Shown piece by piece: positions 7,206 through 56,954 of a DNA stretch of 64,000 bases. The stretch is from Eledone cirrhosa (taxonomy: Eukaryota). The stretch covers positions 377,828,001 through 377,892,000 of the forward strand of contig OZ024741.1 of NCBI GenBank assembly GCA_964016885.1, in the 5' to 3' direction. The stretch's first letter is position 1. Every line of letters starts with the position of its first letter. Below the pieces are notes generated by a model that was given only the letters and a program-made list of their open reading frames with translations, was not told where the DNA came from and ran no database searches. Position numbers and translations under genes: made by a program.

Positions 7206-7859
7206 ATATATATATATATATATATTCGGATATACATGGTATCCGTGTATATGTTTGTGTGCGTATACGTGTATGTATGGAATAATAAACTCCAAGGTCT
7301 TTCAGGGTATTTGGGACATTTAATATTTTAAATTTCGACGAAAAATTGTATTTATTATTTATACTCTGCGTTGAAACGTGCAGGCTGGATCTTCAATTAT
7401 TTTGGCCAATAGATTACATTTTACATTAAGCGGTCAGGTTCCTTAAGGTTCCATTCAATATCTTGATTTATAATATATGTTTATGTATAATAAACATGTA
7501 TAAATCTCACTAGGAGGGATATATCAGCATACCTATTTATTTGACGATAAACATATGGTAGACATCAATTATAAAAACGTGAAATTAAGTAGCTTTTTAT
7601 GAAAGACACATTTCATAAACAATACAAGTTTTCTAATAGATCATATATTGTATCATTATTTTGCGTCTTCCATAAAACCTTTAATTTTTTGAGATATTCA
7701 GAACATATGGCATATGTGAAAAGGATATGGCTTTCCTTATTATTTTTTATTTATCCACTATTTGAATATTTGGATTATCACCGATCTATTTAAAAGTGGA
7801 ATAATATATTTTGTAATTTACGAATATTATTTCCTAATATTTCCTAATATTTCCTAATA

Positions 7860-8050
7860 GGACGGTGGATTGGCAGTATCGGTAGAGAGTCGTACGCCAT
7901 GCTTTCCAGCATAGTTACGTCCCTTTACGATCTGACTTCAAATCCCGCCGAGGTTGACTTTGCCTTTCATCTTTACAGGGTCGATAAAATAAAGTACCAG
8001 TAATACACTGGGTAATTGCTGGCCTTGTGCCTAAAGTAGAAACAATTATT
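7860..8050 (+). mobile_element. tRNA-derived SINE (octopus-type), full length
   Basis: A-box-like TGGCAGTATCGG, B-box-like ACTTCAAATCC, central GCCTTTCATC..GGGTCGATAAAATAAAGTACC, tail GGCCTTGTGCC..GAAACAATTATT; multiple copies in window. Confidence 0.9.
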
Positions 8051-8457
8051 TCCTAATATTCTTAATAATATATTAAACAATGTCAATATCCTGATGAACA
8101 ACTGTGTAAGTTAATTTAATAATATTTTCAACTTCATTGATTAATATTTTAAAGTAAACAGAAAGGAATATGAAGGTGTATAGGGGAAATAATATAAAAA
8201 TAATCGGTTTTATTTGTGTGATAATGTCATGGGTGGTTTCTAATTCAAATACAACGTATAATGATTTATATGTAGCCCTAAAACTAAGCAATAAGAGCAT
8301 ACAGGAAAAATGTGTTCAGAAACATGAAAGAGATAAAATAATTTCCTGCGTTTCTCTTGAAATTCAAATTGGAAAATCGGATATTAAAAAAAAAGAACGA
8401 AGATGTATGATATGTAAAAGGTTGAAATATATCTGATATAAAGAAGCATTGGATGCA

Positions 8458-8490
<33 letters not shown>

Positions 8491-8767
8491 TGGAAAAGAA
8501 TGAAACGAAATTTCATTTCTCACTCTTAGTACGGCTGATACTTAAATGTAAGTATGATCGTATACGTACATACATATATGTATACAGACGTATAGTAGTA
8601 TGTATATATATACATACATGCACACGTATATATATGTACGTATCGGTTTACCAAACATTTATTATAATGTTCGGTTTGTTTGTTTTTTAAACAAACAAAC
8701 AGCCCGAATTGCGCCGTACAGTGTTTAGCACCCATCGTTGCTCTTTTGTTCAACACTGACAGAGGAA

Positions 8768-8808
8768 CGATGTACTAGTTTCAAGCTTATTACCCATTGT
8801 CAGCACCG
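8768..8808 (-). ncRNA. Type I hammerhead ribozyme motif, unit A (core CUGACAA, mutated)
   Basis: Reverse complement CGGTG-CTGACAA-TGGGTAATAAGCTT-GAAAC-TA-GTA-CATCG. Confidence 0.7.
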
Positions 8809-9212
8809 TATCCCTTCCTGCCAGATGATTGAACGTATGAAAGTATATACTTTCCTGATGCATATTAACGGCTGACCAGCCTAATTTGCATATCGAGTGA
8901 GATAGTCGGCCGGGCGCACCGAAAACGATAAATGGAATAGAATGAAACGAAATTTCATTTCTCACTCTTAGTACGGCTGATACTTAAATGTAAGTATGTA
9001 TGTATACGTACATACATATATGTATACAGACGTACAGTAGTATGTATATATATATACATACATGCACATATACATATATATATATATATGTACGTATGAA
9101 TTTACCGAACATTTATTATAATGCACGGTGTGTTTATAAACAAAAATCTCGAATTAAGCTGTACAGAGTTTAGCACCCATCGTTGCTCTTTTGTTCAACA
9201 CTGACAAAGGAA

Positions 9213-9253
9213 CGATGCACTAGTTTCAAGCTTATTAGCCATCGTCAGCACCG
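9213..9253 (-). ncRNA. Type I hammerhead ribozyme motif, unit B (intact core, GUG triplet)
   Basis: Reverse complement CGGTG-CTGACGA-TGGCTAATAAGCTT-GAAAC-TA-GTG-CATCG. Confidence 0.75.
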
Positions 9254-9417
9254 TATACCTTCCTGACAGATGATTGAGCGTTTGAAAGTATATACTTTCC
9301 TTATGCATATTAACGGCTGAGCAGCCTTATTTGCATATCGAGTGAGTTAATCTGTCGTTAATATGCACAAGGAAAGTATATACTTTCAAACGTTCAATCA
9401 TCTGGCAGGAAGGTATA

Positions 9418-9458
9418 CGGTGCTGACGATGGCTAATAAGATTGAAACTAGTACATCG
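9418..9458 (+). ncRNA. Type I hammerhead ribozyme motif, unit C
   Basis: CGGTG-CTGACGA-TGGCTAATAAGATT-GAAAC-TA-GTA-CATCG. Confidence 0.8.
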
Positions 9459-9854
9459 TTCCTTTGTCAGTGTTGAACAAAAGAGCAACGATGGGTGCTA
9501 AACACTGTACGGCTTAATTCGAGATGTTTTTTTACAAACACACCGTGCATTATAATAAATGTTCGGTAAATCCATACGTACATATATATATATGTATGCA
9601 TGTATGTATATATATATACATACTACTGTACGTCTGTATACATATATGTATGTACGTATACATACATACTTACATTTAAGTATCAGCCGTACTAAGAGTG
9701 AGAAAAGAAATTTCGTTTCATTCTTTTCCATTTATCGTTTTCGGTGCGCCCGGCCGACTATCTCACTCGATATGCAAATTTGGCTGCTCAGCCGTTAATA
9801 TGCATAAGGAAAGTATATACTTCCAAACGTTCAATCATCTGGCAGGAAGGTATA

Positions 9855-9895
9855 CGGTGCTGACGATGGCTAATAAACTTGAAACTAGTACATCG
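9855..9895 (+). ncRNA. Type I hammerhead ribozyme motif, unit D
   Basis: CGGTG-CTGACGA-TGGCTAATAAACTT-GAAAC-TA-GTA-CATCG. Confidence 0.8.
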
Positions 9896-10171
9896 ATCCT
9901 TTGTCAGTGTTGAACAAAAGAGCAACGATGGTTGTTAAACACTGTACGGCTTAATTCGGGATGTTTGTTTACAAATACACCGAGCATCGTAATAAATGTT
10001 CGGTAAATCCATACGTACATGTATATATGTGTGCATGTATGTATATATATATACATACTACTGTACGTATGTATACATATATGTATGTACGTATACATAC
10101 TTATATTTAAGTAACAACCGTACTAAGTGTGAGAAATGATATTTCGTCTCATGTTTTCCGTTTATATATAT

Positions 10172-11315
10172 ACTAGCATTAAAGCGCGGCGTTGCAGGGG
10201 TCAGTAAGTTACCAAAGTTAGGTTGCACCACCCATTTTATGGCAGCAATCTTTTGTCTGCCAGGCACTGGGTAAATGAATTGCAGACCTGGACTGCCGAC
10301 GCAGGAGCTGCGCCAGCAGTGACAATTGTAGTTTCGCCTATGGATATTATCTCTGTGCAAAGAAGTGTTGAAATTTATTGTTTCACAGTACTTGCGCAAC
10401 ACGCGCGTAGACGATGCCTGCCGAACAACAGAGCTGCGATGGCGTTGTTCTGCAAGGTTGTCTAATGTGTGTTTTCTAACTTTAAGACAGTAGGGAGTGG
10501 TGTGATATGGGGGAGAGTTAGCAACTGTTTCTAGCATGTTTAGTGACCTCATAGAGGATATTATTGTGTATAGTAAATGGACGGTGGATTGGCAGTATCG
10601 GTAGAGGGTCGGACGCCATGCTTTCCAGCATAGTTACGTCCCTTTACGATCTGAGTTCAAATCCCGCCGAGGTTGACTTTGCCTTTCATCCTTACGGGGT
10701 CGATAAAATAAAGTACCAGTAATGCACTGGGTAATTGCTGGCCTTGTGCCTAAATTAGAAACAATTATTGTGTATAGTAAATGAACTGATACCTTTTTCT
10801 TCCACGTTTGTTGATAGATGTTTTATAAAAGATTTATCGCTATTTTTGTTGTTGTTGAATACATTTATCTGTTGCTTTTGAATAATTGTTGTTTCGTATG
10901 AAATGTAATAAGTTCTCTTTGTCATTGAAGTAAATAAATGTTTGACCGTTCCACACTCAAAAACAAACTTCCCTCTCTCTCTCCCTCTCACTCTCTCTCT
11001 CTTAAAGTTTGTAAGTTTAATCGCATACCAGAAAAAGTTGCAGCATGTATGTAGTTTTATCGAATTTTAAGAGGAGTAGAGAGAGGTAAAATGATTGTAT
11101 TAGAGGGGTAAAGCGTCATATATTTAGTTTGATCGATTATTTCCGTAATTGTGGGTGAGTTTGAATGAAATAAATAGTCGTTGTCCTAAGTTAAACCATT
11201 TACAACATTCTTACAGTCTTGAGTCGAATCGGTTTGAAATTGTGCAAATGTATAAACATGGAACATACACACACACACACACAACAACAACAATCTGCAT
11301 TTTATAGATAATGAT
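10172..11315 (-). mobile_element. Probable non-autonomous Helitron (interrupted by a SINE)
   Basis: CTAG at 10173-10176 beside a degenerate GC-rich hairpin (GCGCGGCGTTGCAGGGG); far end has AATCGG..ATGTATAA..(CA)n..TTTATAGAT resembling non-autonomous Helitron 5' ends. Confidence 0.45.
10580..10770 (+). mobile_element. tRNA-derived SINE with 20-bp target-site duplication
   Basis: Same consensus as 7860-8050, B box GAGTTCAAATCC; ATTATTGTGTATAGTAAATG at 10560-10579 and 10764-10783. Confidence 0.93.
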
Positions 11316-12029: not shown

Positions 12030-12110
12030 TAGTGTGTGACTGCTACTTTATTTTATCGACCCCTTGAGGATGAAAGACCAAGTTAACCTAGGGGGGATGT
12101 TACCTCAAAT
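12030..12110 (-). mobile_element. Degenerate SINE central-domain fragment
   Basis: TACTTTATTTTATCGACCCC..AGGATGAAAG matches reverse complement of SINE core. Confidence 0.6.
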
Positions 12111-21775: not shown

Positions 21776-22014
21776 GGGTGTCATATTAAGTTCTGGTATT
21801 TATACATTTAGGTAGTGCTAAGGGAGGGGTGGTGGCTGCGGGGGGGGGGGGCTAGGATGGTATTTAGATACACAGGACCACAACATGGTACAGGCCGTTT
21901 TTTCTGTGGGGAGTGGTCAATTAGCCAGAGTGCTTTTTTGAAATAAATAAATAAGTAAATAAATAAATAAATAAATGAATAAATAGATAATTTAATAAAT
22001 AAATAAAGAAAATA

Positions 22015-22202
22015 AATGTTTCTACTTTTGGCACAAGGCCAGCAACTATCCAGTGCATTACTGGTACTTTATTTTATCGACCCCGTAAGGATGAAAGGCA
22101 AAGTTAACCTCGGCAGGATTTGAACTCAAACCATAAAGGGGCGTAACTCTTTGCTGCAAAGCATGGCGTCAGACCCTCTACCGATACTGCCAGTCCACCG
22201 CC
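22015..22202 (-). mobile_element. tRNA-derived SINE, full length
   Basis: Reverse complement of SINE consensus. Confidence 0.9.
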
Positions 22203-22221
22203 CTAAATAGGAAAAATAATG

Positions 22222-26570: not shown

Positions 26571-27299
26571 GAATGTAGAGTCCAACAAAGTCCGTAACTT
26601 GAGCAGAGACAGTAGAACCCATGGTCATGTCAAACGTTTCAGGTCTATCCGCGTGTGTTCCTAAGTCCTCTTTGAATGTAATAATATTCTTGTTTCCCTG
26701 GCTGTTAGTATAACGTCGATTTTTTCATGGGTAAGATATGCTTACTTTAATCCATATATAAGTGTTTTATTTAGTTTTATTGAGGAGAATTAGCTACACC
26801 TAATTAAAAGAAGGATTTCCTTAATAAGCGAAGGTTTGTACCGCGAAGATGCACTTTTTACATGAGTTAATCATAATAACAGTGCCATAAATAGGAGGAA
26901 AAAATGATAATAATTTGTTTTCGTAATTACGGTGTTAACATTGAAATAGAAACCAACAGTAGGAATTCAATTTTCTCGACATAACACTGGACATCAATTC
27001 TGGCCTATACAACCGATGAATTAAACTAAAGCCATTACATTAGCTACTTCTGAAACCACCCTAGAAATGTTAAAAATCCACAGTTAAAAGCGTAGAAGGA
27101 AGGATCCCTAGACTCTCAGGAAATAGGGAAATCTTCAATAGTAAGTTTAATTACTATAATAATGTATTAGGTAGAGGTGGATAGAATGACAACATATAAT
27201 GCATACACAAAATAGAAATAATTACCCACCCAAACATAGGCATAAACAAACAAATAGCATAAACACTAACATACACATAATAAATGATAGTAATAATAA

Positions 27300-27490
27300 T
27301 GTTTCTTCTTTTGGCACAAGGCCAGCAATTACCCGGTGCTGGTACTTTAATTTATCGACCCCGTAAAGACGAAAGGGAAAGTTAATCTCGGCGAGATTAA
27401 CTTTGCCTTTCATCCTTACGAGGTCGATGAAATAAAGTACCAGTAATGCACTGGATAATTGCTTGCCTTGTGCCACAATTAGAAATAGTT
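27300..27490. mobile_element. Two head-to-head SINE 3' halves forming a fold-back centred at 27391
   Basis: AAAGTTAATCTCG-G-CGAGATTAACTTT centre; SINE tail at each outer end. Confidence 0.85.
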
Positions 27491-27561
27491 ATTATTGTTA
27501 TCATTTATTGTGTTCCTGTTAGTTTTTATGCTATTTGTTTGTTTATGGCGATGAATGGGAC

Positions 27562-27855: not shown

Positions 27856-30800
27856 TAGTGTACAGACACATACTCAGAGAAGGCCCATTCATTCGGGCCA
27901 TACTTGCTTCTCTCACCCATCTTTCAACAAAATGCTGGGAAGAGAGCACTTCCCTCTCTACCCTGATTTTTCTTTTCAAATGAAATTTGAAAAAGTTAAT
28001 CAGGGCATCACCGAAGAGGTAAGTGCTCGTCTTCAGCCCTTTCAAACGTGTCCAACATACTATCTCTTTCGCCATGGCCACCAGACAGATAAAAACTGCC
28101 TGCCCTTCCAGGCTAAAGAAAGGGGGCGGGGCAATCCTCACGATGGACTCAGCTGATAGCTGGATCCGTACTACACGTGACAGCAGGTGTTCGACATAAA
28201 CCCACAAGTCAGCAATGCTTGGACACTGGACGAGTGCGTGCAGGACGGTTTCGTCGCCCTGCGCGCATCTCGGACATGCCCGGCTGACGGCACCTCCATG
28301 CCTGTAGAGTTTATCCTGAACTGGCAAAGCTCCTCGGTAGCACTACCAGGCCAGGGATTTCTGGAAGTTGTCCATAGGCCCCGGCCCGAAAATCCTTCCG
28401 AAGAGATTGGCTAGTTGATTTTCGTCGACGCCTAGATTTTCTCCAAGTACGGTGTCGCTCTTCCCCTCCACTAATCCCCTATAGAACGCCAAGGTGGAGT
28501 TTCCACCGATCACATTGCCCGATTGGTCGAGGGCTGTGAGCGGCTGAAGACATTCCTGTCTCCAAGCGCTCCCTCTCGGTCTTCGCTTGACCCAGGACTG
28601 CAGCTCCGTCAAGGAGACGAGCTGGGGAAAAACGTGTCTAGCAAACGGCGACCACACCTGATCACCGTCGAGGAAGAGGTGGAGATGTCGTATCCTGAGC
28701 GCGTGTCTGCGCATCATCAGCCACGGCATGCCCAGCCCTCCACGTAGCGGGTGTTGACAGCAGATGGACCGCCTGACCATCGGAGCGCGTCCCTTCCACA
28801 AGAAGCGAAAGAGCAAACGCTCCAGCGCAGTCAGGCGGGGCTTAGGACAAGGTACGACGGTCAGGCGGTAGTAGATGACGGATGCGATGTACGCATTCGC
28901 CACCTCCGCTCGACCTTTCAGGGATAGCTTCCTCTCGGCCCATTTCTGGGTGAGAGAAGCCACCCTGCTCGTCACCTCGTCCCAGTTTTTGTCCGTCTGG
29001 AGGTTTGGACCGAACCAGACCCCTAGCAATTTAACTGTCCGTCCGTCCAGCGCCCGACAACGCTGTTGGACGGCATGGACCTGCCTCTCCAGGTGCCGAG
29101 CTGCAGGCCCACTGACTTTTCCTGGTTGATCATTGCTCCTCTCAACGCTTTGTATTCTCATAGTGTAGTGCCGATCGCCTCGATGTGTTTGGCGTTCGAC
29201 ACCACTACGATGACATCGTCGGCATATGCTGACACGGATCTTCCGCATCCTAGTTCGCGCGGGACCCCCCTCAACGTCTCCAGTTTGTGCAGTAATGGCT
29301 CGAGAGTCAATACGTACAATAGGGACGAGAGGGGACATCCTTGGCGGACCGAGCGCATGTTGTTGAACGGTTCCGAAAGGTGACCATTCACTCTCACTAC
29401 AGAGCAGATGTCGCTGTGCATGGCAGCGATCCAGCCTCTGAAGACGGGCCCAAAGCCAGCCGCCCTCAGGACTGCCGCTAGGTAACGATGGTCGACCCTA
29501 TCGAAGGCTTTCGACTGATCTAATTTGACCAAAGACCCACCCGTGCCAGGTTCCCTAGCTACCCTCTCTACGATGTATCGCATGAGGTGGAGGTTGTCGT
29601 GGATGGATCTGTCGGTAATGGCGCATGTCTGTGCCTCTCCCACCAGACCACCAACGACAAGCGCCAACCTCTTTGCTAGCACCTTGGCCAAAATCTTGAA
29701 CTCTGTGTTTAGCAGAGTTATGGGCCTAAAATTATCTATGTTATCCCCCTTGTTCGGATCCTTTCTCAGCAGCGCCACCGCTCCTCGGCTCACAGAGCTG
29801 GGAATTCTCCCGTTCTGTTGCCAGTTGCAGTAGACGTCCGCCAAGAGGCCTCCGAACAAGTTTGGGATGTGTACGTAAAGTTCATAGGGCAGACCATCCA
29901 AACCAGGCGATATACCCCTTGTGCAACTAGTCATTGCATCGCGTACTTCAGCGGTTGTTATCGGCTTTTCGCAACACTCCGCCTCAGTGGCCGCAAGCCA
30001 CGGCAGTCCGTCGAGGTAGACACTAAAGTCCATCCCGCGATCCGGCCCGCCACTACCCCCAAACAGTTGAGCGAAGTGTCGCTGAAAAGCTTCACACATT
30101 TGCCCTGGATCGAGTAGCATGCGCCCGTCGTGGTCCACCAAAGACCGGATCGTGGCTTTGTTGCCACGACGCGCCTCCGCCACTCGGGCCCATTGAACGG
30201 CTTTCGTTCCCTCGTGTCTGAGAGCACGCACCCTAGCTGTGACAACGCAGCCTTCGTGCTTTGCATTGAAGAATTGGTCAAGGGCCAATTTCGCCGCAAG
30301 TACGTCGGTCGCGATGTCTTTGCTAAGCGCCTCATCTAATTTTCTAACTAATTCTCCCCCTGCTCTATTTTTCTCTATTGCTAAAGTTTTGCTAAACCTA
30401 ATCTATTCTAATTGCTCTTTTCAGAGCAAACCACCACTTGTTGTTGACGATGGCCCCCGTCAACGCCCGCTTAACTAGTTCGCTAATCCGGTCTCTGTAG
30501 GCCTTGCGCGCTGGTAAGGACGCGTTCAACTTCCAGTAGCCGGGTCCTCGTCTATGAAGCCTATCTAAGTCAAGCACACAGATCACGAATTTGTGGTCCG
30601 TGTAGCTGACTATCTTGAATTGTGCACAGCCTATGCTAGACCTATCTATTTCCCTACAAAATACTCTATCTAGATATGATCTGGATGACCCTATGCGATT
30701 TGTCCAAGTCCACATTGGTACATTCGGGAAATCCATTCGGTACATGTCAGACAGTTCAAAACGTCTGAGCAGGTTGGTGAGACTCTTCCACTCTCCTTCC

Positions 30801-33536: not shown

Positions 33537-35545
33537 TTTCATTTATTAGCCACAAGGGCCGACATGTAGGGGACAATACAAAGACAGGGACAGTGGGGGT
33601 TTACAATAAGGTCGAGTAAAAGTGCACAATGGCAAGACTAATTTAACAATGAAAATATAAAATATAAAATAAACTATGCAAAATATAACAAAATAAATTC
33701 CCCGAAAGGGGGTGGACGACCCTGGGGTGATTCGGGTACCCCTCCAATCCTGAACCCCCCTGCGCTTCTAGGGCACCCAGGAGAGCACCCCTCTCCTCAA
33801 GTTAGCTAGCCTATAGGCGCATGGTCAGAGTAGGCCCATTCACACGAGCCATTCTTGCCACATTCACCCACCTTTTAGCAAATGTACTGGGGGGCAGCAC
33901 TTCTCTCTCCACCCTCACCCTCCTTTCCAGGTGAAACTTGAAGAAGTTGATGAGGGATTGGCCGAAGAGAAAAGTGTCTGTCTTTAGTCCTTTCAACCTG
34001 GTCCACCATATAATCTCTTTCGCAACTGCCACCAGACAGAAGAAAATGTCCTGCTCTTCCTGACCTAAGGAAGGTGGCGGCTCGATCTTCACTATGGATT
34101 CGGCCGATAACTGGATTCGTTCCACACGCGAGAGTAGCTGTTCGACATAACTCCACAAGTCAGTAATGCACGGACATTGGACAAGTGCGTGCAGAACGGT
34201 TTCGTCGTTCTGTGCGCATCTTGGGCAGGTCCGTCTGACAGCACTTCCGTGCCTGTAGAGTTTATCCAACATTCCAGGTGCTAGTCACCCAGTCTCGGTC
34301 TCTTCTTCACCCAGGACTGCAGCTCAGTCAAAGAAATGAGCTGCGGAAAGGCCCGTCTGATAAACGGCGACCACACCTGTTCACCATTGAGGCAGAATAT
34401 CTGGAGATGTCGCAGCTTCAACGCATGTCTGCGCAGCCTCAACGGCATGCCCAGCCCTCCGTGTAGAGGGTGCTGGCAGCAGATGGACCGCCTCACCAAC
34501 GGAACTTGTCCCCTCGACAAGAATTTGAAGAGGAGCCGTTCCAACTTGACGAGGCGCGGACGGGGGCAAGGCACGACGGTTAGGCGGTAATAGATGACGG
34601 ACGCGATGTACGCATTCGCCACCTCCGCGCGACCTTTCAGTGATAGCTTCCTCCCAGCCCATTTTTGGGTGAGACTGGCTACTCTGCTCGTTACCTCGTC
34701 CCAATTCTTTTCCACCTGGAGGTCTGGTTCGAACCAAACCCCGAGCAACTTTACTGGTCCGTCCGTCCAGCGCCCCACGACGCTGTTGGACGGCATGGGC
34801 TTGCCTCTCCAGGTTCCGAGCTGCAAGCCCACCGACTTTTCCGGGTTAAGTTTGGCTCCTGTCAACCTTTCATATTCCTTCAATAAGGTGCCGACCACCT
34901 CGATTTCTGAGGTGTTCGACACCATCACGGTGATGTCGTCCGCATAAGCCGACACCGCCTTTCCACGTCCCGGTTCGAGCGGGATGCCCTGCAACAGCTC
35001 CAGCTTCCGCAGAAAAGGTTCGAGAGTCAATACGTACAGAAGGGAAGAGAGAGGGCACCCTTGACGGACCGATCGGGAGAGCCGAAATGGTTCCAAGAGA
35101 TGGCCTTTAACCTTGACCACCGAGCGTGTGCCGCTGTGCATTGCAACGATCCAGCTTCTAAAGACAGGGCCGAAGCCAGCTGCTTTGAGGACAAACTCCA
35201 GATACCGATGGTCGACCCTATCGAATGCTTTCGATTGATCTAAATTGATCAGTGCCCCACCGAAGCCAGGTTTACACCCAACCCTCTCTATGATGTATCG
35301 CATGAGGTGGAGATTGTCGTGTATGGACTTGGCTGGGATTGCGCAAATTTGCGCCTCCCCAACCAAATCCTCGACGACAAGCGCCAATCTCTTTGCTAAC
35401 ACCTTGGCCAAAATCTTAAACTCTGTGTTGAGCAGAGTTATGGGCCTGAAGTTGTCTAATGTATCACTCTTGTTCTCGTCTTTCCTTATCAGCGTCACCA
35501 CTCCCCTGCTCACAGAACTGGGAATACTCCCATTCTGCTGCCAGT
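33535..35545 (-). mobile_element. Tx1 family B, 5'-truncated RT/CCHC copy flanked by (AAT)n
   Basis: ORFs 34281-35513 and 33811-34272 closely match 47341-49788; internal deletion near 34270. Confidence 0.93.
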
Positions 35546-36519
35546 AATAATAATAAGAATAAGGGAAGAAGACGCACGAGGTGGTAGAACGTCACGAAAT
35601 TGCTCCCGTAAGTTTTTTGATTTTTAACATATTTAAATCAATTGTGAAAGAACAATTCTTAGCACAAATGTTGCATAAAGGCACCGAATGAGGTCCCATA
35701 AAGTTTCGGATCCATATTATATTGTTGTATCGCTCACATATTCAATTTTGTATTATATATTTTGTATTCAAAAAAAGAAAATGGTTATAAATGGAACAAA
35801 ACACCCTCTGTCTACACTATATAGAACAGCAGCAATTTCAATTTCACCAACACCAGAAACTTGATACGCTACCTATCCCATCACACTAAATATAACAGCC
35901 AGAAAACGGCAATTTCACCAGCATCAGAATAATATTTACTATTATTATTGTCTCAAATTTAAAAAAATGTTTAATTCAAATTTTACGGGAATATGTCAAC
36001 ACAAAATATAATAAAAATATATATTAAACATACGAACACAAACTCATAGATACTATATCAGTAACCACAACACCACCGCTGCCACCACCCCACCACATCC
36101 ATCATCGCCGCCACCACTCATTCAATGCTACTGACACTATTCCCCTGTTAACTTGATAGAGAAAAGGGAAGGTGGCGGTAGCACTAGACAAGAGAGAGGC
36201 TAGCAAAAGATACAAATAGATTGACTTGGTGACCTTGCCACGGCCAAACGTCTACATCAACAATTATGGGACTGCTGGCTCACCCCTTTCTCACCAACAA
36301 TATAAAAATCCCCGGCACCACCACCGACATAGCCAACAACAATAACAGCCAACTACAACAAATAGTATATTATAGTATTGTAATGCACTGGGTGATTGCT
36401 GGCCTTGTGCCTGGAGTGGAGACAATTATTAATCATTTCATTCTTAAGCCACGCAATGCTCACATTAAGGAACCACTCATGATAATAACAATTTAAAAAA
36501 AAAAAACAACAAAAAGAAA

Positions 36520-39500
36520 ATCCCGTGTCCAAGAAATACCGGGATGGCGGCCGGCGGGGAATAGCCATGTCTCTAGGGGAGAACGACCCCTCTAGTCTTG
36601 GTTGACACTCGTTCTAAAAGTGGTAACACGAAATGATTACCCCTTGGCGGATAAGGATAAAACGCGACAAAATAAAGTAAATGTCTAATGATAAAATCTC
36701 ATACCGTCACCCGGGTAAAAAAGGGCCGCGTCCCTCAGAGAGGAACCAGACTGGGGTCGAAAAATCAGCTAATGGTTCAAACCTTCCCATCACTTCGGAG
36801 CTGGAGACCTCCCATAACCGGAATACTCCTACTGTTGGCCCTCCATGCTCACCACCAAGAAATCCAAAGAAAAAGAGAGAAAAATGGTCAAGGGAAGATA
36901 ATAAAGAAGTCCTTGACGCTTTCTACACTGCCATGTACTACCCATCAAATATATCGAATACAGAACAAACATATATCAACTGCAAAAAGAAACATCCCGA
37001 AAACAGAGGCTATATTGACAGTAACAAACTAGCCAATATACGAAGAAATATTGTAAGAAAAAAGTTACAAACTGATATAGAAATTGATCAGATCAAGCTA
37101 GTAGCACAAAGTCAGCGAATGGAAAATGAAGCATGTGTCAGTGAAAACGAGGTAAACTGTAACACTTCGAATCCCAGGGTTGGGGCGGAATCACTGGCAA
37201 CAGAACAAATTAAAGAGAGGAGCGAAAAAATGGAGGGAGTGCATGCTCAGGATGAAACTCCAAATGAAAATAATGAGATCGTAAATGATAAAGAAATGAA
37301 TGAGAATGAACTTGCCAACTTGAAGGATGAAATTATGATCGAATGGATGAAAATGAAAGATTCTGACATGGGGTAACGAGACACCCTCCCTAAGATCCAG
37401 AACTCCAAACAGAACCAAAAGATAATACACAAGACTAACATAATTCTCAAAAACATTATCATCACAAACAAACTAAACATTACTGACTTAAATCATCTCT
37501 ATTATGCATCGGCTAAAGTCACCACTCACTTATGTGGAGTGAAGATGAAAAAACAAAGGAATTCCAACAAGAAATCTACTTGGCAAGATAACATCAATCG
37601 CCAAATAAACCTTCTCCGATCTGACATAGACATTTTAACAAACTATAAAGTAGGTGAACATGTTAAACTAAACTTAGAAAATTGAAAAAAAAGTACAGTA
37701 TAAGATCAACATGTGACATAGACATGCTGATAGAAACAATCAAGCAAAAAGTGTCGGCCAAAGCTGCTCGTATAAGGCGCTTTGAAAAACGATCTAGATT
37801 CTATAAGGACAATAATATGTTAAAAAACAACCAAAGAAACTTCTACAGAAAAATTGGTAAGTCAACAATAACTGCTAAATCAATACCACCCAAGGAGGAA
37901 GTGCAAGAATTCTGCGAAAAGATCTGGGCCGAAGAAAAAGTTCATAACATACCTGCCCCATGGATAGACAGACAAATGAAAGAAACAGCTCACCTTGAAG
38001 AACAAACATGGGAAAATACAACAGTTGAACAGCTGCGCTTGGCTCTAAGAAAAACCATCAAATGGAAATCCCCAGGAAAAGACAAAATACAAAACTTTTG
38101 GATAAATGCCTTCACAGAGTCTCATGAGCTGTTAGCCCAACTTTACAATGAAATAGTTAAGGAGCCAGAAAAGATACCATCATGGCTAGTTAACGGCATT
38201 ACATACCTGCTACCGAAGAATGATGAGACAAACAATCCCAAAAATTACAGACCGATAACCTGCTTGACCACAATGTATAAAATGTTAACATCAGTCCTAA
38301 CTGAATACACATATGACCACCTGATAATAAATGACCTATTTCCCACTGAGCAGAAAGGGTGTAAACGAGACTCATATGGCTGTAAGGATCAGCTTCTGGT
38401 TAACAAAATGATACTGGAGGATTGTCATAATAGACACAAAAATCTATCGATTGCTTGGATAGATTATAAAAAAGCATTCGATAGTTTGCCACACAGTTGG
38501 ATTGAAAAATGTTTAGAGATTTTCAAAATATCCCCCGTTGTCAGGAGGTTTTTGTCATTCAGTATGAAGACATGGTGAACGACACTCCGTTTGAATAATG
38601 AAACAAAATCACTGGAAGCTAGAGAAGTTAACATTAATTGTGGAATGTTTCAGGGTGACTCTTTATCACCGCTTTTATTCTGCATCGCACTTATACCATT
38701 AAGTAAAATGCTCAATGAAACAAAACATGGATATAGAGTCTATGACAAAACCATTAATCACCTGTTCTACATGGATGACCTGAAACTATTTGCAAAAAAA
38801 TGATGAACAATTGCAAGGGCTATTATCCACTGTGAAGCAGTTCAGTGATGACATTAAAAGGGAGTTTGGACTGGATAAATGCGCCAAAGCAACGTTCACC
38901 AGAGGAAAGCTGCTGAAGAGTTCAGACATTAATCTTGATCGGGGGAACGTGATAAGAGAGCTTGATCAAGAAAAAACTTACAAATATCTAGGTGTTTGTG
39001 AAGGATACGGAATCAAGCACTCGACAATGAGGGAAAGGATAAGGAAGGAATGTTACCGCAGAGTCAGAGTAATCTTAAGAACGGAATTGAATGCAAGGAA
39101 TAGGATCGATGCCATAAACACGCTTGCCATACCAGTAGTAACCTACAGTTACAATGTCATCAACTGGTCAAGCACAGAGATCCGTAGGCTCAATACAAAA
39201 ATCCGAAAATTCTTAACCATGCACAGAATGCATCACCCTAAGTCAGATATAGATAGAATATATCTCCCTAGGAAAGAAGGAGGACGTGGGTTAATCCAGT
39301 TAGACATTGCGTTGAAAACTGCAACAATTGGATTATCCACATATCTAAGGGAATCACATGATTGGATGATCAAACTCGTTTTGAAACACGAAAGCACCAA
39401 AAGATCATATTCCATTACAAAAGATACACAGAGATACAGTAATGGACTACAAATTTCAGAAGTCCCATTTACTGCTGAAATGGAAAACACAGAAAAAGCA

Positions 39501-47340: not shown

Positions 47341-50300
47341 CTACAGGCGCATGATCAGAGTAGGCCCACTCACGCGGGCCATTCTCGCCACATTCACCCA
47401 CCTTTCAGTAAATGTACTGGGGGGCAGCACTTCTCTCTCCACCCTCACCTTCCTTTCCAAGTGAAACTTGAAGAAGTTGATGAGGGATTGGCCGAAGAGA
47501 AAAGTGTCTGTCTTCAGTCCTTTCAACCTGGTCCACCATGCAACCTCTTTCGCTACTGCCACCAGGCAGAGGAAAATTGCCTGCCCTTCCTGACCAAAAG
47601 AAGGCGGCGGGTCAATATTCACTATGGACTCGGACGATAGCCGGATCCGTTCTACACGCGACAATAGCTGTTCGACATAACCCCACAAGTCAGCAATGCA
47701 CGGACACTGGACGAGTGCGTGCAGAACGGTTTCGTCGCTCTGCGCGCATCTCGGGCAGGTTCGTCTGACAGCACTTCCGTGCCTCTAGAGTTTATCCCGA
47801 ACCGGCAGCGGCCCCCGGTAGCACTGCCAAGCGAGGGATATCTGGAAGTTATCCATCGTCCCCGGCTCGAAAGTTCTCCGGAACATACTGGTCAGTTCTA
47901 CTTCGTTGACACCTAGAGCCTCTCCTAGTACGTCATCGTACTTGCCCTCCACTAATCCTCTATAGAAATCTTGAGTGGAAGTTCCACTGACCGCATTGCC
48001 CACCTTGCAGAGTGCAGTGAGGGCCTGGCAACATTCCCGATGGCAGTCGCCCAGTCTCGGTCTCTTCTTGACCCAGGACTGCAGCTCTGTCAAAGAGATG
48101 AGCTGCGGAAAGGCCCGTCTAACAAACGGCGACCACACCTGTTCACCGTTTAGGCAAAATATCTGGAGATGTCGCAGCCTCAGCGCATGTCTGCGCATCA
48201 TTAGCCACGGCATGCCCAGCCCTCCACGAAGAGGGTGCTGGCAGCAGATGGACCGCCTCACCAACGGGACCCGTCCCCTCCACAAAAATTTGAAAAGGAG
48301 CCGTTCCAAATTGGCGAGGCGTGGACGGGGGCAAGGCACGACGGTCAGGCGGTAGTAGATGACGGACGCGATGTACGCGTTCGCCACCTCCGCGCGCCCT
48401 TTCAGTGATAGCTTTCTCTCAGCCCATTTCTGGGTGAGGTTGGCTATCCTGCTCGTCACCTCGTCCCAATTCTTATCCACCTGGAGGTCTGGTCCGAACC
48501 AAACCCCGAGCAACTTTACCGGTCCGTCTGTCCAGCGCCCAATGACGCTGTTGGACGGCATGGACTTGCCTCTCCAGGTGCCGAGCTGCAAGCCCACCGA
48601 CTTTTCCGGGTTAAGTTTTGCTCCCGTCAACCTTTCATATTCCTCCAAATGGGTGGGGATCACCTCGATTTCCGAGGTGTCCGACACCATCACGGTGATG
48701 TCGTCCGCATAAGCGGACGCAGCCTTTCTACGTCCCGGTTCGAGCGGGATGCCCAGCAACAACTCCAGCTTCCGCAGTAGAGGCTCAAGAGTCAATACGT
48801 ACAGAAGTGAGGAGAGAGGGCACCCTTGACGGACCGATCGAGAGATCTGAAACGGTTCCGAGAGGTGGCCATTAACTTTGACCACCGAGCAGATGCCGCT
48901 GTACATTGCAGCGATCCAGCTTCTGAAGACGGGGCCGAAGCCAGCCACCTCGAGGACAGCCTCCAAGTACCGATGGTCGACCCTATCGAATGCTTTCGAT
49001 TGATCTAAATTGATCAGAGCCCCACCGAAGCCAGGTTTGCACCCAACCCTCTCTATGATGTATCGCATGAGGTGGAGGTTGTCGTGTATGGACCTGGTCG
49101 GGATTGCGCAAGTTTGCGCCTCCCCAACCAAATCTGTGACGACAAGCGCCAACCTTTTCGCTAACACCTTGGCCAAAATCTTAAACTCTATGTTGAGCAG
49201 GGTTATGGGCCTGAAATTATCTAGTGTGTCCCTCTTGTTCTCGTCTTTCCTTATCAGCGTCACTACGCCACGGCTCACAGAACTGGGAATGCTCCCGTTC
49301 TGCTGCCAGTTGCAGTAGAGCGCTTCGAGGAGATCGGAGAACAAGTCTGGCATATTTACGTAAAGCTCGTAGGGCAGACCATCCAAACCGGGTGACTTGC
49401 GACTCGAGCAGCCGACAAGGGCGTCCTGAATTTCGACTGATGTTATCGGCTCTTCGCAGCGCTCAGCGTCGGCCGTCGAGAGGCGTGGCAAGCCGTCGAG
49501 GTAGGGACTGAAGTCCGCCGCCGTCTCCGACTCACCCATCCCCCCGAACAATCGAGCAAAGTGCTGGCAAAAGGCCTCACACATCTGTTTGGAATCGCTC
49601 AGTTCGTGTCCATCTCGATCCGTCAAAGACCGAATTGTGGTTTTATTTCCACGCTGCCTCTTTGCAAAGCGAGCCCATCGGGCAGCTTTGGTTCCCTCGT
49701 TCCTCAGAGCACGCGCCTTAGCTCTGACAATGCAACCTTCGTGTTTCGCATTGAAGAAATGGTCTAGTGCCATTCTCGCCGCTAGCACGTCTGTTGCAAT
49801 GCCACTACAAATAGCCTCGTCTAACTTAGCTAACAGCCCCTCCTCCTTTCTATTTTTCTCTATTGCTACTTATTTGCTAAATCCTATCGAGGTTGCTCTA
49901 ATCTCTCTTTTGAGAGCCCCCCACCACCTGTTGTTGACAACCCCCCCCCCTGTCAACTTTTGCTTAACTAAGTTGTTGACCCGGTCCCTGTAAGCTTTAC
50001 GTGCCGGAAACGACATGTTTAGCTTCCAGTAGCTAGGTCCTAACCTACGTGTCTTATCTAGGTCGACCATACAGATCACAAGCTTGTGATCTGAATAGGC
50101 AACCGTTTTAAAATGTGGACATCCTACACTATTTCTATCTCTTTTCCTAATGAAAATCCTATCTATGTACGATCTAGATGACCCTATGCGATTGGTCCAG
50201 GTCCATACTGGCGCATTAGGGAAATCTAGTCGGTACCTGTCAGACAGTTGAAACTGGCTGATCAGGTACTTGAGGCTTTTGCACCCCCCGCTCCTATCAG

Positions 50301-50763
50301 ATACTCCCACACAATCCCAGCGTGCTTCTAAGATGCCATTCCAATCCCCTATTAACAGTAAAGGGCGAGACGTAAGCAGAAAGTGTTCCAGGCGCCTAAA
50401 GAAGTCCGGCCGACCGGCCCCAGTAGGGGCGTAGACGGCCACCAGTCTAAAGGCACCACCTTCGCTATTGCTCACGTCCAGGACCACCAACTTTCCGTCA
50501 GGATCCCGGAAGATTGACCTTACCTCGAGATCCAGACATTTCCTAAACAGCACAGCCACTCCACCTCCCATTCCCGGCCGACTAACAGATGCAAAGATCT
50601 GATAATCGTCGAAAATCGGCGCCAGTGCGCGTGTGTTGAAAATTCTGGTCTCGCTGATGGCAATTACATCCATTCCTAGTGACCTGAGGTCGTTGAGCAA
50701 GTGACCTTGCTTCCAGGGCGACCCCAGGCCACGAACATTTAAACTTCCTACTCTTATGGCCAT
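47341..50763 (-). pseudogene. Tx1 family B ORF2 (APE, RT, CCHC), nearly intact
   Basis: SLNVRGL, ISET, VYAP, IGDWN, SYIDR, SDH; 667-aa RT ORF with AYADD. Confidence 0.93.
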
Positions 50764-50792
50764 GCTGGCAGGATGAATGGGAGAGGAAAGGT

Positions 50793-52675
50793 TTACTTAC
50801 CTTCCGGGGTCTTGTGAAGGTCGGGTGGTTCGACCTCCATGGTTTGTGGGGTTTCTTTTGGGAACCCCTTTAATAGTCTTGAAGTGGGTTTTACGTTCGG
50901 GGTTCCCACATCCCGAGGAAAGCTCTTTCGAATTTCTTTGTATGAAGCGAGCGACATTCGCATCAGAAGCAAATTATCTGGTACGCGAAATGTGCTCGCT
51001 TCAAATGTGCTTCGTGCTACATGGGCCATCAATTCCTTGTTGGCCCTTCTGGCAAGCACGAAGTTTTTAATGTTTTGTTGCTCGGGTTTTATTTGTTCGT
51101 GTGATTGTGGTGGTGATAGCTTTGTTAGTGTTGTTTCTATTGTGTCTGCGTTTGTTGTGGGTGGGGTGTCTGTAGTTTCTGATGTTTGTGTGTCTATTTG
51201 TTCTTGTGTCTGTTTAGCTTGTTTGCGTTCGGGGGATTTTGGTGGTTGTGTTGGTGATGCTGTGGGGAAAATGTTTGTGTGGGTGGTGTGTGTATTTTTT
51301 TTGTGGGGGTGTTTGTGCTTTGTGGATTTCTTTTTTTTTTGTGTTTTGTTTTTTGTATTTTGGGGGACTTTGGTTTTCCCTCATCTTCACTGCTGGAGGA
51401 TGAGGGGTCTGTGGCTGTGAGCGTGTTTGTGTCTGAGTGAGTGTTTATGTTCTTGTTCGTGTGTGTATTTTGGGGGGGGGGGGTGGGAGAGCTTTCCTCG
51501 TTTCCCCCCTGGGTGTGCAATTTTGGTGGTTCCATTGTTGACGGTGTTGCTGGTGGTCCTTGTCCCGGCGTCGCCAGCAGTGGAATCTTTCGACACCTTG
51601 CGCTTTTCGGCAGTTGAGGGCAGAAGGCTCGCAAGTGTGTCGTTTCCCCACAAAGGAAACGATGCGGCCTTTTGCCCTCAGTCATTATATGCAACACCCT
51701 CCCGTTTTGGAGGCGGATGTGGTCCGGGATTGCTTTTACGTTTTCGGGTCTAATTTGGAGCAGTATCTCCAGATCAACCCCGGACCAGTCGTTCCTGGCA
51801 GTTCTCGTTGCCTCTACCGGGACTGTATCCGTTCCTTCCACGATTACGCAACCCAGGAGCCACCACATATCAAGTCCTGGTGGAATCCTCTGAATGCGCA
51901 CACGTGCTATTCGTTTTCCCATGTGGGAGGGGTACATTATGACCTTGCTAGTTTTGCAAGGGGTCATTGAATGCTTCACAGCGAGGGCTACAGACTTGAA
52001 CAGCACCGAAACGGTGCCGTATTGCCTGCCCCTCTCTATGAAGTCTGTGTCCTCTCTGATATATTTCAGTGCGGCTTCTATATCAGCTTGAGCGATTATC
52101 GTTGCCCTCTTTGTCTCTACTGAGATGCATCTGAAATGCACCGTTCTTTTTTCCACTGCCTCAATGGCTTCTGCCGGGACAGTTAAGTTTGCCCAGGTCT
52201 GCTCTTGATTTATGATTTTCCAGGCCTGGGCCAACTTTTCCTCTCTGTTGGTTAAGTCGATGCTGTAGCATGGTCTCCTTTTAGCCGCTGCCACAGCAGC
52301 GAAGGTGTTCTTGTTGGTGTTGTCACTGTTGTTGTTCTTGTTGGTGTTGCTGCTGCTATTGCTGTTGTTGTTCTCCCCTGTGTCGTGGTTACCCTCTGTG
52401 CTGTTGGCCTTGTTGGTGCTGCTGTTGTCGCTACTATTACTCTCTGTGCTGTTCATTTTGTTGGTGCTCTCACTATTACCACCTTCTGCGCTGTTCGGCT
52501 TGTTGGTGTTGGTGTTGTCGCTGTTACCACCTTCCGCGCCGCTCGGCCCGTTGGTGCTGGCACTGTCGCTGCTCACACTCGTGCTGGTGGCGCTCCTCGC
52601 CCCACCTCTCCTCTCAACGCTCAAGTCGCCGTTGCACGACAGCAGACCCGCCTCTAGGGGGCGTGGCTCCGTCAT
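50793..52675 (-). pseudogene. Tx1 family B ORF1 (gag-like)
   Basis: RGRQYGTV and (R)FLCGETTHLRAFC homologous to family A ORF1; S/N-rich N-terminal repeats. Confidence 0.85.
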
Positions 52676-54336: not shown

Positions 54337-54530
54337 GGCGGTGGATTGACAATATCGGTAGAGGGTCGGAAACCATGCTTTCCAGCATAGTTATGTCCCT
54401 TTACGATCTGCGTCGTTCAAATCCCGCCGAGGTTGACTTTGCCTTTCATCCTTACGGGGTCGATAAAATAAAGTACCTGTAATGTACTGGGTAATTTTTG
54501 GCCTTGTGCCAAAAGTAGAAACAATTATTT
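54337..54530 (+). mobile_element. tRNA-derived SINE, full length
   Basis: Matches SINE consensus; ATTATTT on both sides. Confidence 0.9.
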
Positions 54531-56912: not shown

Positions 56913-56954
56913 ACTCATGAACCGTGGTGGATATAATTGACATTCTCCCTTGTA

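Follow-up and report, generated by a model that had tools for sequence, protein, structure and literature searches.

We found a palindrome at positions 8486-10165 of the window, the whole 64-kb stretch of Eledone cirrhosa DNA analysed here. It has two arms, and each arm contains one 5'-truncated and one full copy of a non-coding unit of ~435 bp. The four copies (u1-u4) each carry a type I hammerhead motif (Table 1). The first-pass annotation had described a palindrome of four non-coding hammerhead units of ~440 bp, with hammerhead spacings of 445 bp in the minus pair and 437 bp in the plus pair. This is borne out by the direct repeats at 8693-8912/9138-9357 (90%, spacing 445) and 9351-9616/9788-10053 (91%, spacing 437) and by inverted repeats of 398 nt (94%), 325 nt (86%, arms 30 nt apart) and 307 nt (88%). 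With the arms in mirror register, complementarity holds at 761 of 813 ungapped columns (93.6%), with up to 109 nt in one uninterrupted stretch. In silico, the potential for the ~800 bp of double-stranded RNA that had been proposed to arise on read-through is real. The longest open frame of the insert is 82 amino acids and its GC content is 35%. The arms are asymmetric at the centre, where the minus arm reaches ~35 nt further in. A fold-back assembly artefact is excluded because the arms differ by 6-9%. Logan contigs (three runs of one sample) cover the repeat in pieces of ~60 nt, which span neither the centre nor the ends.

Table 1. Features of the palindrome and its borders (window coordinates).
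Feature	Position	Strand	Description
(TA)n microsatellite	8457-8485		adjoins the outer (3') end of the minus arm
Minus arm	8486-9350	-	from the centre, unit with ~16 nt 5' truncation, then full unit to unit position 385
u1 hammerhead domain	8756-8824	-	CUGACAA (G8 to A); also a G in stem II, stem II broken; predicted cleavage between 8773 and 8772
u2 hammerhead domain	9201-9269	-	core intact; position 17 is G, not a cleavable H; predicted site between 9218 and 9217
Head-to-head (5'-5') arm junction	9340-9357		~7 nt fit either arm
Plus arm	9351-10165	+	unit with ~52 nt 5' truncation, then full unit; ends in CCGTTTAT at unit position 385
u3 hammerhead domain	9402-9470	+	core and H17 intact; stem II C to A gives a G-A mismatch (AGAU); predicted site between 9453 and 9454
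TA/TG-rich, partly self-complementary low-complexity segment	9567-9683	+	u3 coordinates; unit positions ~217-333; in all four units
u4 hammerhead domain	9839-9907	+	core and H17 intact; stem II G to A gives a C-A mismatch (AACU); predicted site between 9890 and 9891
Short (AT)n stretch	10166-10172		adjoins the outer (3') end of the plus arm

The core pattern CTGANGA..GAAAC has three matches in the whole window, all within the palindrome (9223-9248 on the minus strand, 9423-9448 and 9860-9885 on the plus strand); 0.83 matches are expected by chance, and three or more occur in 6 of 100 shuffles. When the core CUGANGA...GAAA is combined with a cleavable H17, only u3 and u4 qualify in the window. 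The motif string and the extension of stem I through an internal loop appear in the unit alignment as they had been described, and the private lesion proposed for each copy is seen as separate changes in u1, u2, u3 and u4. In addition to the changes listed in Table 1, u2 carries a second lesion, G to U in distal stem I. The proposed stem II consensus GGCT holds at the locus but not for the family, in which AGCU is the majority form and GGCU is private to this locus. All four local ribozymes carry disabling or weakening changes and are probably inactive or impaired, and the units are 4-11% apart. We regard the local copy as a fossil.

Whether one dimeric template was copied twice to give the palindrome was examined through the variants of its four units. 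The few informative sites in the four-unit comparison group u1 with u4 and u2 with u3 (3 : 0 : 0). Private changes number 20 in each outer unit, and 10 and 6 in the inner units. One private variant is common to u1-u4, and three more are common to three units (null mean 0.02). At the sequence level this shows that u1-u4 have a common source, and the shared variants fit rolling-circle and multimer templates alike.

The palindrome is not a local oddity. The intact-core motif pattern CTGANGAN{10,18}GAAACTAGTA has 28,547 matches in the genome (14,732 + 13,815), in contrast to 5 (2 + 3) for the reversed control. The units sit in short dispersed tandem arrays, from one unit and a fraction to at least 12 units, with a period of 422-445 bp in subfamily A and ~470-500 bp in subfamily B. 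All 40 scored matches of the younger subfamily B (of 436 candidates) are 100% identical over 220 nt, and identical copies of this subfamily lie on many chromosomes. The family is thus large and seemingly still active.

The family hammerhead contains all conserved core nucleotides in a type I topology, with helix I open and helices II and III loop-capped. Helix I consists of 5 bp, an internal loop and then 4+6 bp, helix II has 4 bp above a U-U mismatch, and helix III amounts to an A-U pair closed by CUAG, a palindromic tetraloop. In the young subfamily B, cleavage is predicted at GUA|C. The core is intact in 103 of the 130 motif instances examined, and the free N7 is the sole core position that varies among subfamilies. 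In 72 distinct natural copies, pairing is found in 95.5% of cells, as compared to 33.7-44% when the 3' partners are slid. Both sides are changed in 28 cells, against 8.3±2.3 in shuffles, and none of 500 shuffles reaches 28; this covariation stands for few independent events, in that two double changes were inherited by subfamilies. The variants include G-U (41), U-G (16) and A-U (11) at pair 22-58, and A-U (52) and U-G (11) at pair 12-66. Between subfamilies, a TA/TG-flanked block is conserved as well as or better than the hammerhead (0.98 vs 0.93).

Rfam gave no match in the whole window at the gathering score, and at E<=10 the 2.1-kb region gave 147 matches, none to a hammerhead and all of them noise, in the TA/TG-rich segment, to mir-297 and similar miRNA families. 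For the young subfamily, a 111-nt search ranks Hammerhead_HH9 highest among the Rfam models, in the expected register (18.5 bits, E = 0.016). The cut-off of this model is 52 bits, and none of the Rfam hammerhead models attains gathering. In nearest-neighbour folding of the young subfamily, the hammerhead shape is at -9.1 kcal/mol and the minimum at -19.7 kcal/mol. Minimum-free-energy folding of single domains did not recover the hammerhead fold, and of five such domains, four are matched or bettered by many shuffles. For the monomer from cleavage site to cleavage site, folding gives z = -5.08, with both ends predicted to pair in the long helix I. The hexamer duplex of an intermolecular helix III, a helix that a nested model cannot score, is by itself at -6.8 kcal/mol.

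These properties bear on whether the ribozyme matters to the repeat. The unit could be a non-autonomous repeat that depends on Penelope-like elements (PLEs) and carries the hammerhead as a passenger or relic, without cleavage in vivo or a role for circular RNA. The minimal helix III and a predicted energy minimum other than the hammerhead fold agree with this, as does the fact that inserted arrays retain uncleaved sites and that none of the surveyed subfamily A and B loci has an end at the ribozyme cleavage position. The minimal hammerheads of PLEs are described as cleaving poorly in vitro in the relevant section of PMC4209133, and Naiad PLEs thrive without hammerheads according to a passage of PMC8557442. 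On the other hand, the core is invariant and pairing persists between subfamilies whose other parts are ~28% different, and the young subfamily B has the most canonical motif, with CUGAUGA and a perfect 4-bp helix II. Related animal retrozymes are reported, in the part of PMC7229834 that deals with their RNA, to be cleaved and circular in vivo. We therefore regard a mere passenger as unlikely.

We surveyed the junctions of 51 independent loci, 27 of subfamily A and 24 of subfamily B. The head-to-head orientation of the window palindrome recurs at 29 of them. Subfamily A has 14 head-to-head, no tail-to-tail and 13 single-orientation loci; in subfamily B, 15 head-to-head loci are accompanied by 6 of single orientation, 2 complex ones and 1 that is tail-to-tail. 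These last three calls are probably spurious, because they are based on 77-80% matches of the self-complementary TA/TG segment, and no convincing tail-to-tail array exists among the 51 loci. Within the first 100 motif places listed, all 11 opposite-strand neighbours less than 1 kb apart are minus-then-plus and none is plus-then-minus. On their 3' side, the arrays end at either of two fixed positions of the unit, which are TA-rich and lie beside (TA)n. In subfamily A, 20 of 39 are at unit positions 381-385 and 16 of 39 at 305-328; in subfamily B, 16 of 34 are at 447-453 and 13 of 34 at 380-398. The alternative end used at other loci (~318) is contained in the TA/TG-rich segment of the unit. The junction reads TTTCC(G/A)T(T/A)TAT followed by TA-rich sequence at 18 of the 20 unit-array ends listed. 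The 5' starts are scattered over unit positions in both subfamilies.

Hammerhead-bearing repeats were originally described as satellites, as recounted in PMC7229834, and some arrays here are long, the one near 149.82 Mb of contig C1 having 12 or more units. Both points would suit satellite DNA with a hammerhead that was spread and inverted by unequal crossing-over or fold-back replication instead of retrotransposition. This is highly improbable in view of the ~56 distinct loci along the initial 21 Mb of a single chromosome (among the matches listed), the generally short arrays, the discrete 3' ends combined with scattered 5' ends, the strong orientation bias (29 head-to-head to at most one tail-to-tail, and 11 to 0 among the motif places listed) and the identical copies across many chromosomes.

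The genome is rich in PLEs. It contains 10,596 GIY-YIG candidates, of which all 150 that were scored pass the Pfam cut-off, and open reading frames with a reverse transcriptase (RT) plus a GIY-YIG domain at the C terminus were confirmed. PLE tails are described in part of PMC8557442 as yielding the same tandem-plus-inverted picture. On such a reading, a coding PLE would have the unit as its terminal repeat (tail or pseudo-LTR, pLTR), and two copies with heavy 5' truncation would make up the palindrome. At one locus (L072), a unit array does lie directly against a PLE family A copy, on its 3' side and with matching orientation; the other five copies of that family lack the unit. An adjacent RT/GIY-YIG frame, raised as a point to check in the first-pass annotation, is absent: no PLE ORF lies within 1.5 kb at the 27 + 24 independent unit loci or in the window. 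Among 42 sampled PLE loci (of more than 10,000 candidates), the unit is near 3 and an integral part of none. Local alignment of unit parts with six PLE 3' UTRs gave nothing above shuffles except for one stretch at locus L071. The ordinary PLE tail or pLTR is therefore largely refuted already and very improbable, as the tandem period is also that of the ~430-500-bp unit, in arrays of up to at least 12 units, and not the length of a PLE. Out of the initial alternative between a retrozyme and a pLTR array, the retrozyme has stood, with its own ~425-500-bp period and dispersed copies, and the pLTR has fallen for want of an adjoining PLE ORF.

Two sequence similarities at PLE loci were rejected as links to a helper. 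The exceptional stretch at L071, a 30-nt T-rich hairpin located downstream of the ORF, belongs to another (TA)n-flanked repeat and not to that PLE. Apart from L055, L071 and L072, BLAST matches of the unit at PLE loci reflect generic TA/TG microsatellite sequence (74-81%, both strands).

The unit is best compared with the animal non-LTR retrozymes (Cervera & de la Pena 2020, PMC7229834; Li, Clavereau & Pollet 2026 preprint, 10.64898/2026.07.22.740005). As outlined in parts of these sources, they are non-coding tandem repeats of 150-450 bp with low GC content and type I hammerheads, present in thousands of dispersed copies beside autonomous PLEs, and their monomers are highly self-paired. The family shares these features: short non-coding tandem units of low GC content with a type I hammerhead, no LTR and no ORF, in dispersed copies that bear marks of retrotransposition with no coding element attached. 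It differs in that subfamily B units (~470-500 bp) slightly exceed the described range, and in that the known retrozymes have documented RNA forms, whereas the present description of this family comes from genomic DNA. Junctions are not described in the portions of PMC7229834 concerned; here we find 29 of 51 loci head-to-head, (TA)n flanks and two fixed 3' ends. Our literature search, at the level of main texts, listed no paper joining retrozymes to head-to-head or twin-primed insertion, and for inverted insertion or microsatellites it listed two, both among those discussed here. The locus belongs to this known class as a further member, and the palindrome is a fossil insertion of a non-LTR retrozyme family, not a pLTR array.

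The ribozyme has close counterparts. In the axolotl motifs, as characterized in part of PMC7229834, helix III is weak and helix II has a U-U at its base. By description, the one-pair helix III with a palindromic tetraloop resembles HHR_Amex1 and the U-U mismatch resembles HHR_Amex2 of axolotl and newt, although stem and loop sequences differ from those of the unit. Motifs of these types are reported in the same account to cut well only as dimers, and a passage of PMC4209133 likewise describes a short helix III with a palindromic loop as acting in dimers. The hammerheads of PLE pLTRs (Cervera & de la Pena 2014, PMC4209133; Craig et al. 2021, PMC8557442), in the excerpts bearing on them, are similar motifs near the 3' end. 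In this genome, PLE family C carries a hammerhead that is built alike, 386 nt after the stop codon, with a U-U at the base of helix II and a helix III of A-U plus the palindromic tetraloop GUAC, and this family ends in (TA)n. Rfam at E<=0.01 gave no hammerhead on seven PLE loci, only noise of the TA/TG type. In contrast to these pLTRs, the unit has no flanking RT/GIY-YIG ORF, its period is the unit itself, and its sequence has no significant resemblance to the sampled PLE tails.

The insertion marks point to the same elements. PLE insertions, in the sections of PMC8557442 devoted to them, are 5'-truncated and partly tandem, often carry an inverted 5'-truncated copy, and are biased to microsatellites including (TA)n, all of which is shared by the unit arrays. 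The Penelope dependence that had been suggested for the family is supported indirectly by the head-to-head inversion, the variable 5' truncation and the (TA)n junctions. We thus consider it very probable that the palindrome is one old head-to-head retrozyme insertion, likely made into (TA)n by a PLE reverse transcriptase and endonuclease. The locus itself is a fossil without special consequence. The junctions tie retrozyme arrays to PLE-type integration by structural marks, beyond mere co-occurrence. The arrays appear to be already formed on arrival: their 3' ends are fixed and TA-rich, their 5' ends vary, and many of them are inverted head to head. This disfavours purely local amplification and supports an uncleaved or re-ligated (circular) RNA template.

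A possible course of events is as follows. Retrozyme arrays would be transcribed as multimers, and their hammerheads may cut mainly as dimers between neighbouring units, since helix III is only an A-U pair with the palindromic tetraloop CUAG. Monomers, closed by the long helix I, might then be ligated to circles. At a (TA)n target, the PLE enzyme would make a nick in either strand, and the 3' ends so exposed, each in (TA)n, would serve as primers at UA-rich sites (unit position ~385 or ~318) of RNA that is circular or a multimer left uncleaved. Two cDNAs would result and become linked through their 5' ends. Because (TA)n equals its own reverse complement, both cut 3' ends could anneal to the same UA-rich RNA sites.

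LINE-1 twin priming, as set out in part of PMC2837659, likewise makes two cDNAs from both target strands and leaves an inverted, 5'-joined insertion. In LINE-1, only one outer end is the true 3' end, whereas here both outer ends are the same unit position, possibly because the template is repetitive or circular and the target self-complementary. It is tentatively conceivable, and perhaps doubtful, that such symmetric twin priming at (TA)n makes the palindromes and that thousands of them could feed silencing of the family as sources of hairpin RNA. If true, symmetric twin priming would account for head-to-head palindromes in more than half of the insertions, for the identical unit position at both outer ends and for the absence of ends at the ribozyme cleavage site. 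The young subfamily with its identical copies would then be a natural system for studying the mechanism of PLE integration. The young PLE family A also shows comparable structures: five of its six copies terminate in ...CTAAT(AT)n, and the family forms a head-to-head palindrome of 1,732 nt (99%) with a 26-nt spacer.

Repeat analysis of the window resolves a two-arm palindrome, with units u1 and u2 in its minus arm and u3 and u4 in its plus arm (see the table). The repeat finder places the direct repeats 445 bp apart in the minus pair and 437 bp apart in the plus pair, and detects inverted repeats, the longest of 398 nt at 94%, confirming the four-unit palindrome that the first-pass annotation had described. 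The inner arms lie 30 nt apart; aligned in mirror register, the arms are complementary in 761 of 813 ungapped columns, the longest perfect run being 109 nt. An assembly fold-back is excluded by the 6-9% divergence between the arms and by their inequality at the centre. Each arm ends outward at unit position 385 (...TTTCC(G/A)TTTAT), each adjoining (TA)n. The insert has a GC content of 35% and a longest stop-to-stop frame of 82 aa; the large ORFs within the window are of LINE type (RVT_1, Exo_endo_phos).

Positions of features in the window or, where an L-number is given, in an extracted genomic locus (local coordinates)
Feature	Position	Strand	Remark
Two-arm palindrome	8486-10165
Minus arm	8486-9350	-	one 5'-truncated and one full ~435-bp unit
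Plus arm	9351-10165	+	one 5'-truncated and one full ~435-bp unit
Second hairpin, u3 (subfamily A)	~9541-9566		stems CCGAGCAUU/AAUGUUCGG
Second hairpin, subfamily B	L071 6695-6720		stems AGCGGCGUU/AGCG(U)CCGCU
Head-to-head junction, subfamily B	L071 6210-6250
LINE-type retrotransposon fragments	47785-50796; 1145-2542; 29158-30402; 34281-35591; 37667-38578	-; +; -; -; +	RVT_1 in six frames
~190-nt dispersed repeat	7855-8050, 10574-10769, 54339-54529; 22011-22203 (-)		tRNA-like GTTCAAATCCCGCC box
~190-nt repeat, partial copies	near 27295-27493, 56593-56922, 12031-12110, 36380-36430
High-copy repeat	10166-10300		CTAGCATTAAAGCGCGGCGTTGC...
PLE family A palindrome	L066 613-4102 (contig C1 near 438.61 Mb)		head-to-head
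GTGGTAAGGAA-type repeat	L070, just past PLE family A end; L071 5597-5670, 5963-6040
Repeat with terminal hairpin	L071 4600-4665		AACGAAACGAAAUU/AAUUUCGUUUCGUU

Among the LINE-type fragments, an Exo_endo_phos endonuclease adjoins a 694-aa RT frame. The ~190-nt repeat is probably a tRNA-derived SINE. Two of its copies, 95-96% identical and in direct orientation, lie on either side of the palindrome at ~420-440 nt; we regard them as separate members of a common repeat and rejected a target duplication. Another high-copy repeat starts directly right of the palindrome, and many short run contigs begin within it, with variant sequences (loose ends at 10197).

The core pattern CTGANGA..GAAAC has three matches in the 64-kb window, all inside the palindrome (0.83 expected; three reached in 6 of 100 shuffles), and the fourth unit carries the same hammerhead motif with one core change. 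The parts follow the order helix I 5' strand, CUGACGA, capped helix II, GAAA, capped minimal helix III, GUA and helix I 3' strand, which gives a type I topology. In helix I, CGGUG/CAUCG leads into an internal loop, beyond which come 4 + 6 more pairs that include a GG bulge; helix II has four pairs over a U-U mismatch, and the palindromic tetraloop CUAG closes the single A-U pair that makes up helix III. The earlier statement that each copy has its own defect was borne out: u1 has G8 changed to A and a broken helix II, u2 has a G at position 17, and u3 and u4 have one helix II mismatch apiece. The first helix II pair is G-U instead of A-U in all four window units, a variant seen in 1 of 30 units from other loci. 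The window locus is locally decayed, and the value for follow-up lies in the family.

The extracted loci contain 130 hammerhead domains, of which 103 retain both core and H17 intact; 77 of the 130 are distinct. We aligned 72 of the 77 distinct domains, leaving out five with more than nine differences or indels. The named structure pairs in 95.5% of cells, compared with 33.7-44.0% with slid partners. Two-sided changes occupy 28 cells; shuffles give 8.3 ± 2.3, and 0 of 500 attain 28. Few events carry this covariation signal. Pair variants are G-U (41), U-G (16) and A-U (11) in helix I and A-U (52) and U-G (11) in distal helix I, while helix II has one-sided changes. No recognition of the motif was obtained with Rfam at curated thresholds; when 111 nt were searched, the motif of subfamily B matched Hammerhead_HH9 in the right register with 18.5 bits (cut-off 52). 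Thermodynamic folding of single domains did not return the hammerhead shape, which is expected with such a helix III, yet lends no support. The window's cleavage-to-cleavage monomer reaches -124.6 kcal/mol when folded, compared with -95.5 ± 5.7 in shuffles (z = -5.08), and both its ends are predicted to pair in a long helix I extension.

A search for the unit in the window's own genome (3.0 Gb) yielded 3,578 first-look candidates, with 40 of 40 scored loci matching at 74-100% identity. The exact pattern CTGANGAN{10,18}GAAACTAGTA occurs 14,732 + 13,815 times and its reversed control 2 + 3 times. The listed motifs include at least three sequence types (N7 = C or U; loop II = AAUA or AACA). Copies of subfamily A, the window's type, are ~90-93% identical to the window's unit. 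Subfamily B, found by chance downstream of the ORF of a Penelope-like element (PLE), has a period of ~470-500 bp, the core CUGAUGA and a perfect helix II AGCU/AGCU. It has 436 candidates on many chromosomes, and is young, since all 40 scored matches are 100% identical over 220 nt; subfamily A is older. Mean identity between A and B is 0.93 in the core and helices II/III, and 0.76 in the helix I 5' strand; it falls to 0.46-0.70 downstream and reaches 0.98 in a single TA/TG-flanked block, so the ribozyme is among the best-kept parts of the unit, though not uniquely. By eye and uncounted, a second hairpin, whose loop (UU)AUAAUA(A) is kept, seems to covary between the subfamilies. A B insertion in L071 has its head-to-head junction exactly in this loop, giving a perfect local palindrome.

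We mapped the unit on the extracted loci, dropping overlapping duplicates (L002, L014, L027; L079, L098-L102) and counting a match only if 30 nt or more of it lay outside the low-complexity segment. The 27 subfamily A loci, including the window's own, comprise 14 head-to-head and 13 single-orientation loci, with no tail-to-tail or complex ones. The 24 subfamily B loci comprise 15 head-to-head, six single-orientation, one tail-to-tail and two complex loci, the last three based on weak matches in a self-complementary TA/TG segment. The 3' ends fall at 381-385 (20/39), 305-328 (16/39) or elsewhere (3) in A, and at 447-453 (16/34), 380-398 (13/34) or elsewhere (5) in B; at the mapped A and B loci none lies at the ribozyme cleavage position. 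Ends at position 385 continue into TA-rich sequence in 18 of the 20 listed. The 5' ends are scattered; in head-to-head loci, the unit position at which one arm stops bears no relation to that of the other. Among the first 100 listed motif places, all 11 opposite-strand neighbours less than 1 kb apart are minus-then-plus; three plus-then-minus neighbours lie 1.1-2.3 kb apart. This pattern across loci indicates that the window palindrome is a standard integration product of its family and not a special structure.

The first-pass annotation had left the choice between a retrozyme and a PLE pseudo-LTR (pLTR) array, and had proposed a search for units with and without an adjacent RT/GIY-YIG. A PLE origin of retrozymes has been argued for vertebrates from co-occurrence and pLTR similarity, in the preprint 10.64898/2026.07.22.740005. 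Here, tblastn with twelve PLE open frames gave no match in 30 A loci, 30 B loci or the window. Units lie near only 3 of 42 PLE loci sampled through GIY-YIG: in opposite orientation to the PLE (L055), ~2.5 kb downstream as a head-to-head insertion of its own (L071), and adjoining the PLE tail through (TA)n (L072), where the remaining five copies of that PLE family have no unit. For the loci sampled, the pLTR array is thus rejected. The retrozyme identification was correct: at the sequence level, the family fits the definition of animal non-LTR retrozymes in PMC7229834, and it has insertion marks described for PLEs in PMC8557442. The preprint 10.64898/2026.07.22.740005 also proposes local amplification of arrays, whereas the junctions here point to integration of ready-made arrays.

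We then investigated the PLEs of this genome. GIY-YIG gave 10,596 first-look candidates (150 of 150 scored above the Pfam cut-off), and ORFs that combine RT with a GIY-YIG domain at the C-terminus were confirmed. PLE family A is young, as its copies are ~97% identical in protein, and ends in ...CTCACTTTCTAAT(AT)n in 5 of 6 copies. One locus (L066) is a head-to-head palindrome of this family with 1,732-nt arms, 99% complementary, and a 26-nt spacer, compared with the 30 nt between the window's inner arms; this palindrome is young, and 551-aa frames are open on both of its strands. The family's 3' UTR of ~1.2-1.6 kb (L062, L063, L066, L069, L070, L072) has internal ~160-nt tandem repeats, and a simple pattern search of it found no canonical hammerhead core. 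The L072 copy stops ~90 nt early at ...TTTTTCTTTAT(AT)n, resembling the retrozyme end ...TTTTCCGTTTAT(AT)n. PLE family C carries a hammerhead 386 nt past the stop codon (CUGAAGA-U-UGC-GAAA-GCA-U-GAAA-GUAC-U-U; L064, minus strand), ~170 nt before a (TA)n-flanked 3' end and also present in L065, L068 and L060. In this minimal type I motif, helix II has 3 bp and a GAAA loop, and helix III consists of an A-U pair with a GUAC tetraloop; the retrozyme motif likewise has a U-U base of helix II and a helix III of one pair and a palindromic tetraloop. Comparing the unit with the PLE tails sampled revealed no sequence similarity, and so pointed to no helper PLE. A further hammerhead family has a 3-bp helix III (CUGAUGA-A-GGGU-GAU-ACCC-A-GAAACA-UUAG-UGUC; L041:25 and L070 minus strand, reverse-complement coordinate 7128).

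We propose that transcription of an array would give multimers, in which ribozymes with so minimal a helix III would cleave mainly through dimers of neighbouring units, as reported for this motif type in PMC4209133 and PMC7229834; the monomers would be ligated into circles. With a PLE RT/endonuclease, (TA)n target ends would prime at UA-rich RNA sites. Once inserted, arrays keep uncleaved ribozyme sites and end at TA-rich unit positions rather than at the cleavage site, which suggests that the template was an uncleaved multimer or a re-ligated circle instead of a linear monomer. Because the two arms stop independently at their 5' ends, we favour two separate cDNAs, joined 5' to 5', over the snap-back of one cDNA. 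Since (TA)n is self-complementary, both target strands offer the same primer, which might explain the high head-to-head share. Our literature search found no paper joining retrozymes with head-to-head or twin priming. The minimum-energy fold of a read-through RNA (-1258.7 kcal/mol) places 777 of the 865 left-arm bases in pairs with the right arm, perfect runs measuring 109, 55 and 50 bp; the palindrome would yield dsRNA if the locus is transcribed through.

A further repeat, beginning ...GTGGTAAGGAA(C/T)CAGATGGACCATAAC..GGGTAATA, has three occurrences directly beside (TA)n or (GA)n microsatellites, and may be another microsatellite-targeting element. In L071, an unrelated repeat terminates in a 14-bp hairpin, a U-rich run and UAUAA(AU)n, a 3' end of the same kind as the AAAUGAAA/UUUCAUUU hairpin and UUUCCGUUUAU(AU)n of the retrozyme; the resemblance may mark a shared recognition feature or be due to chance, the sequence being T-rich.
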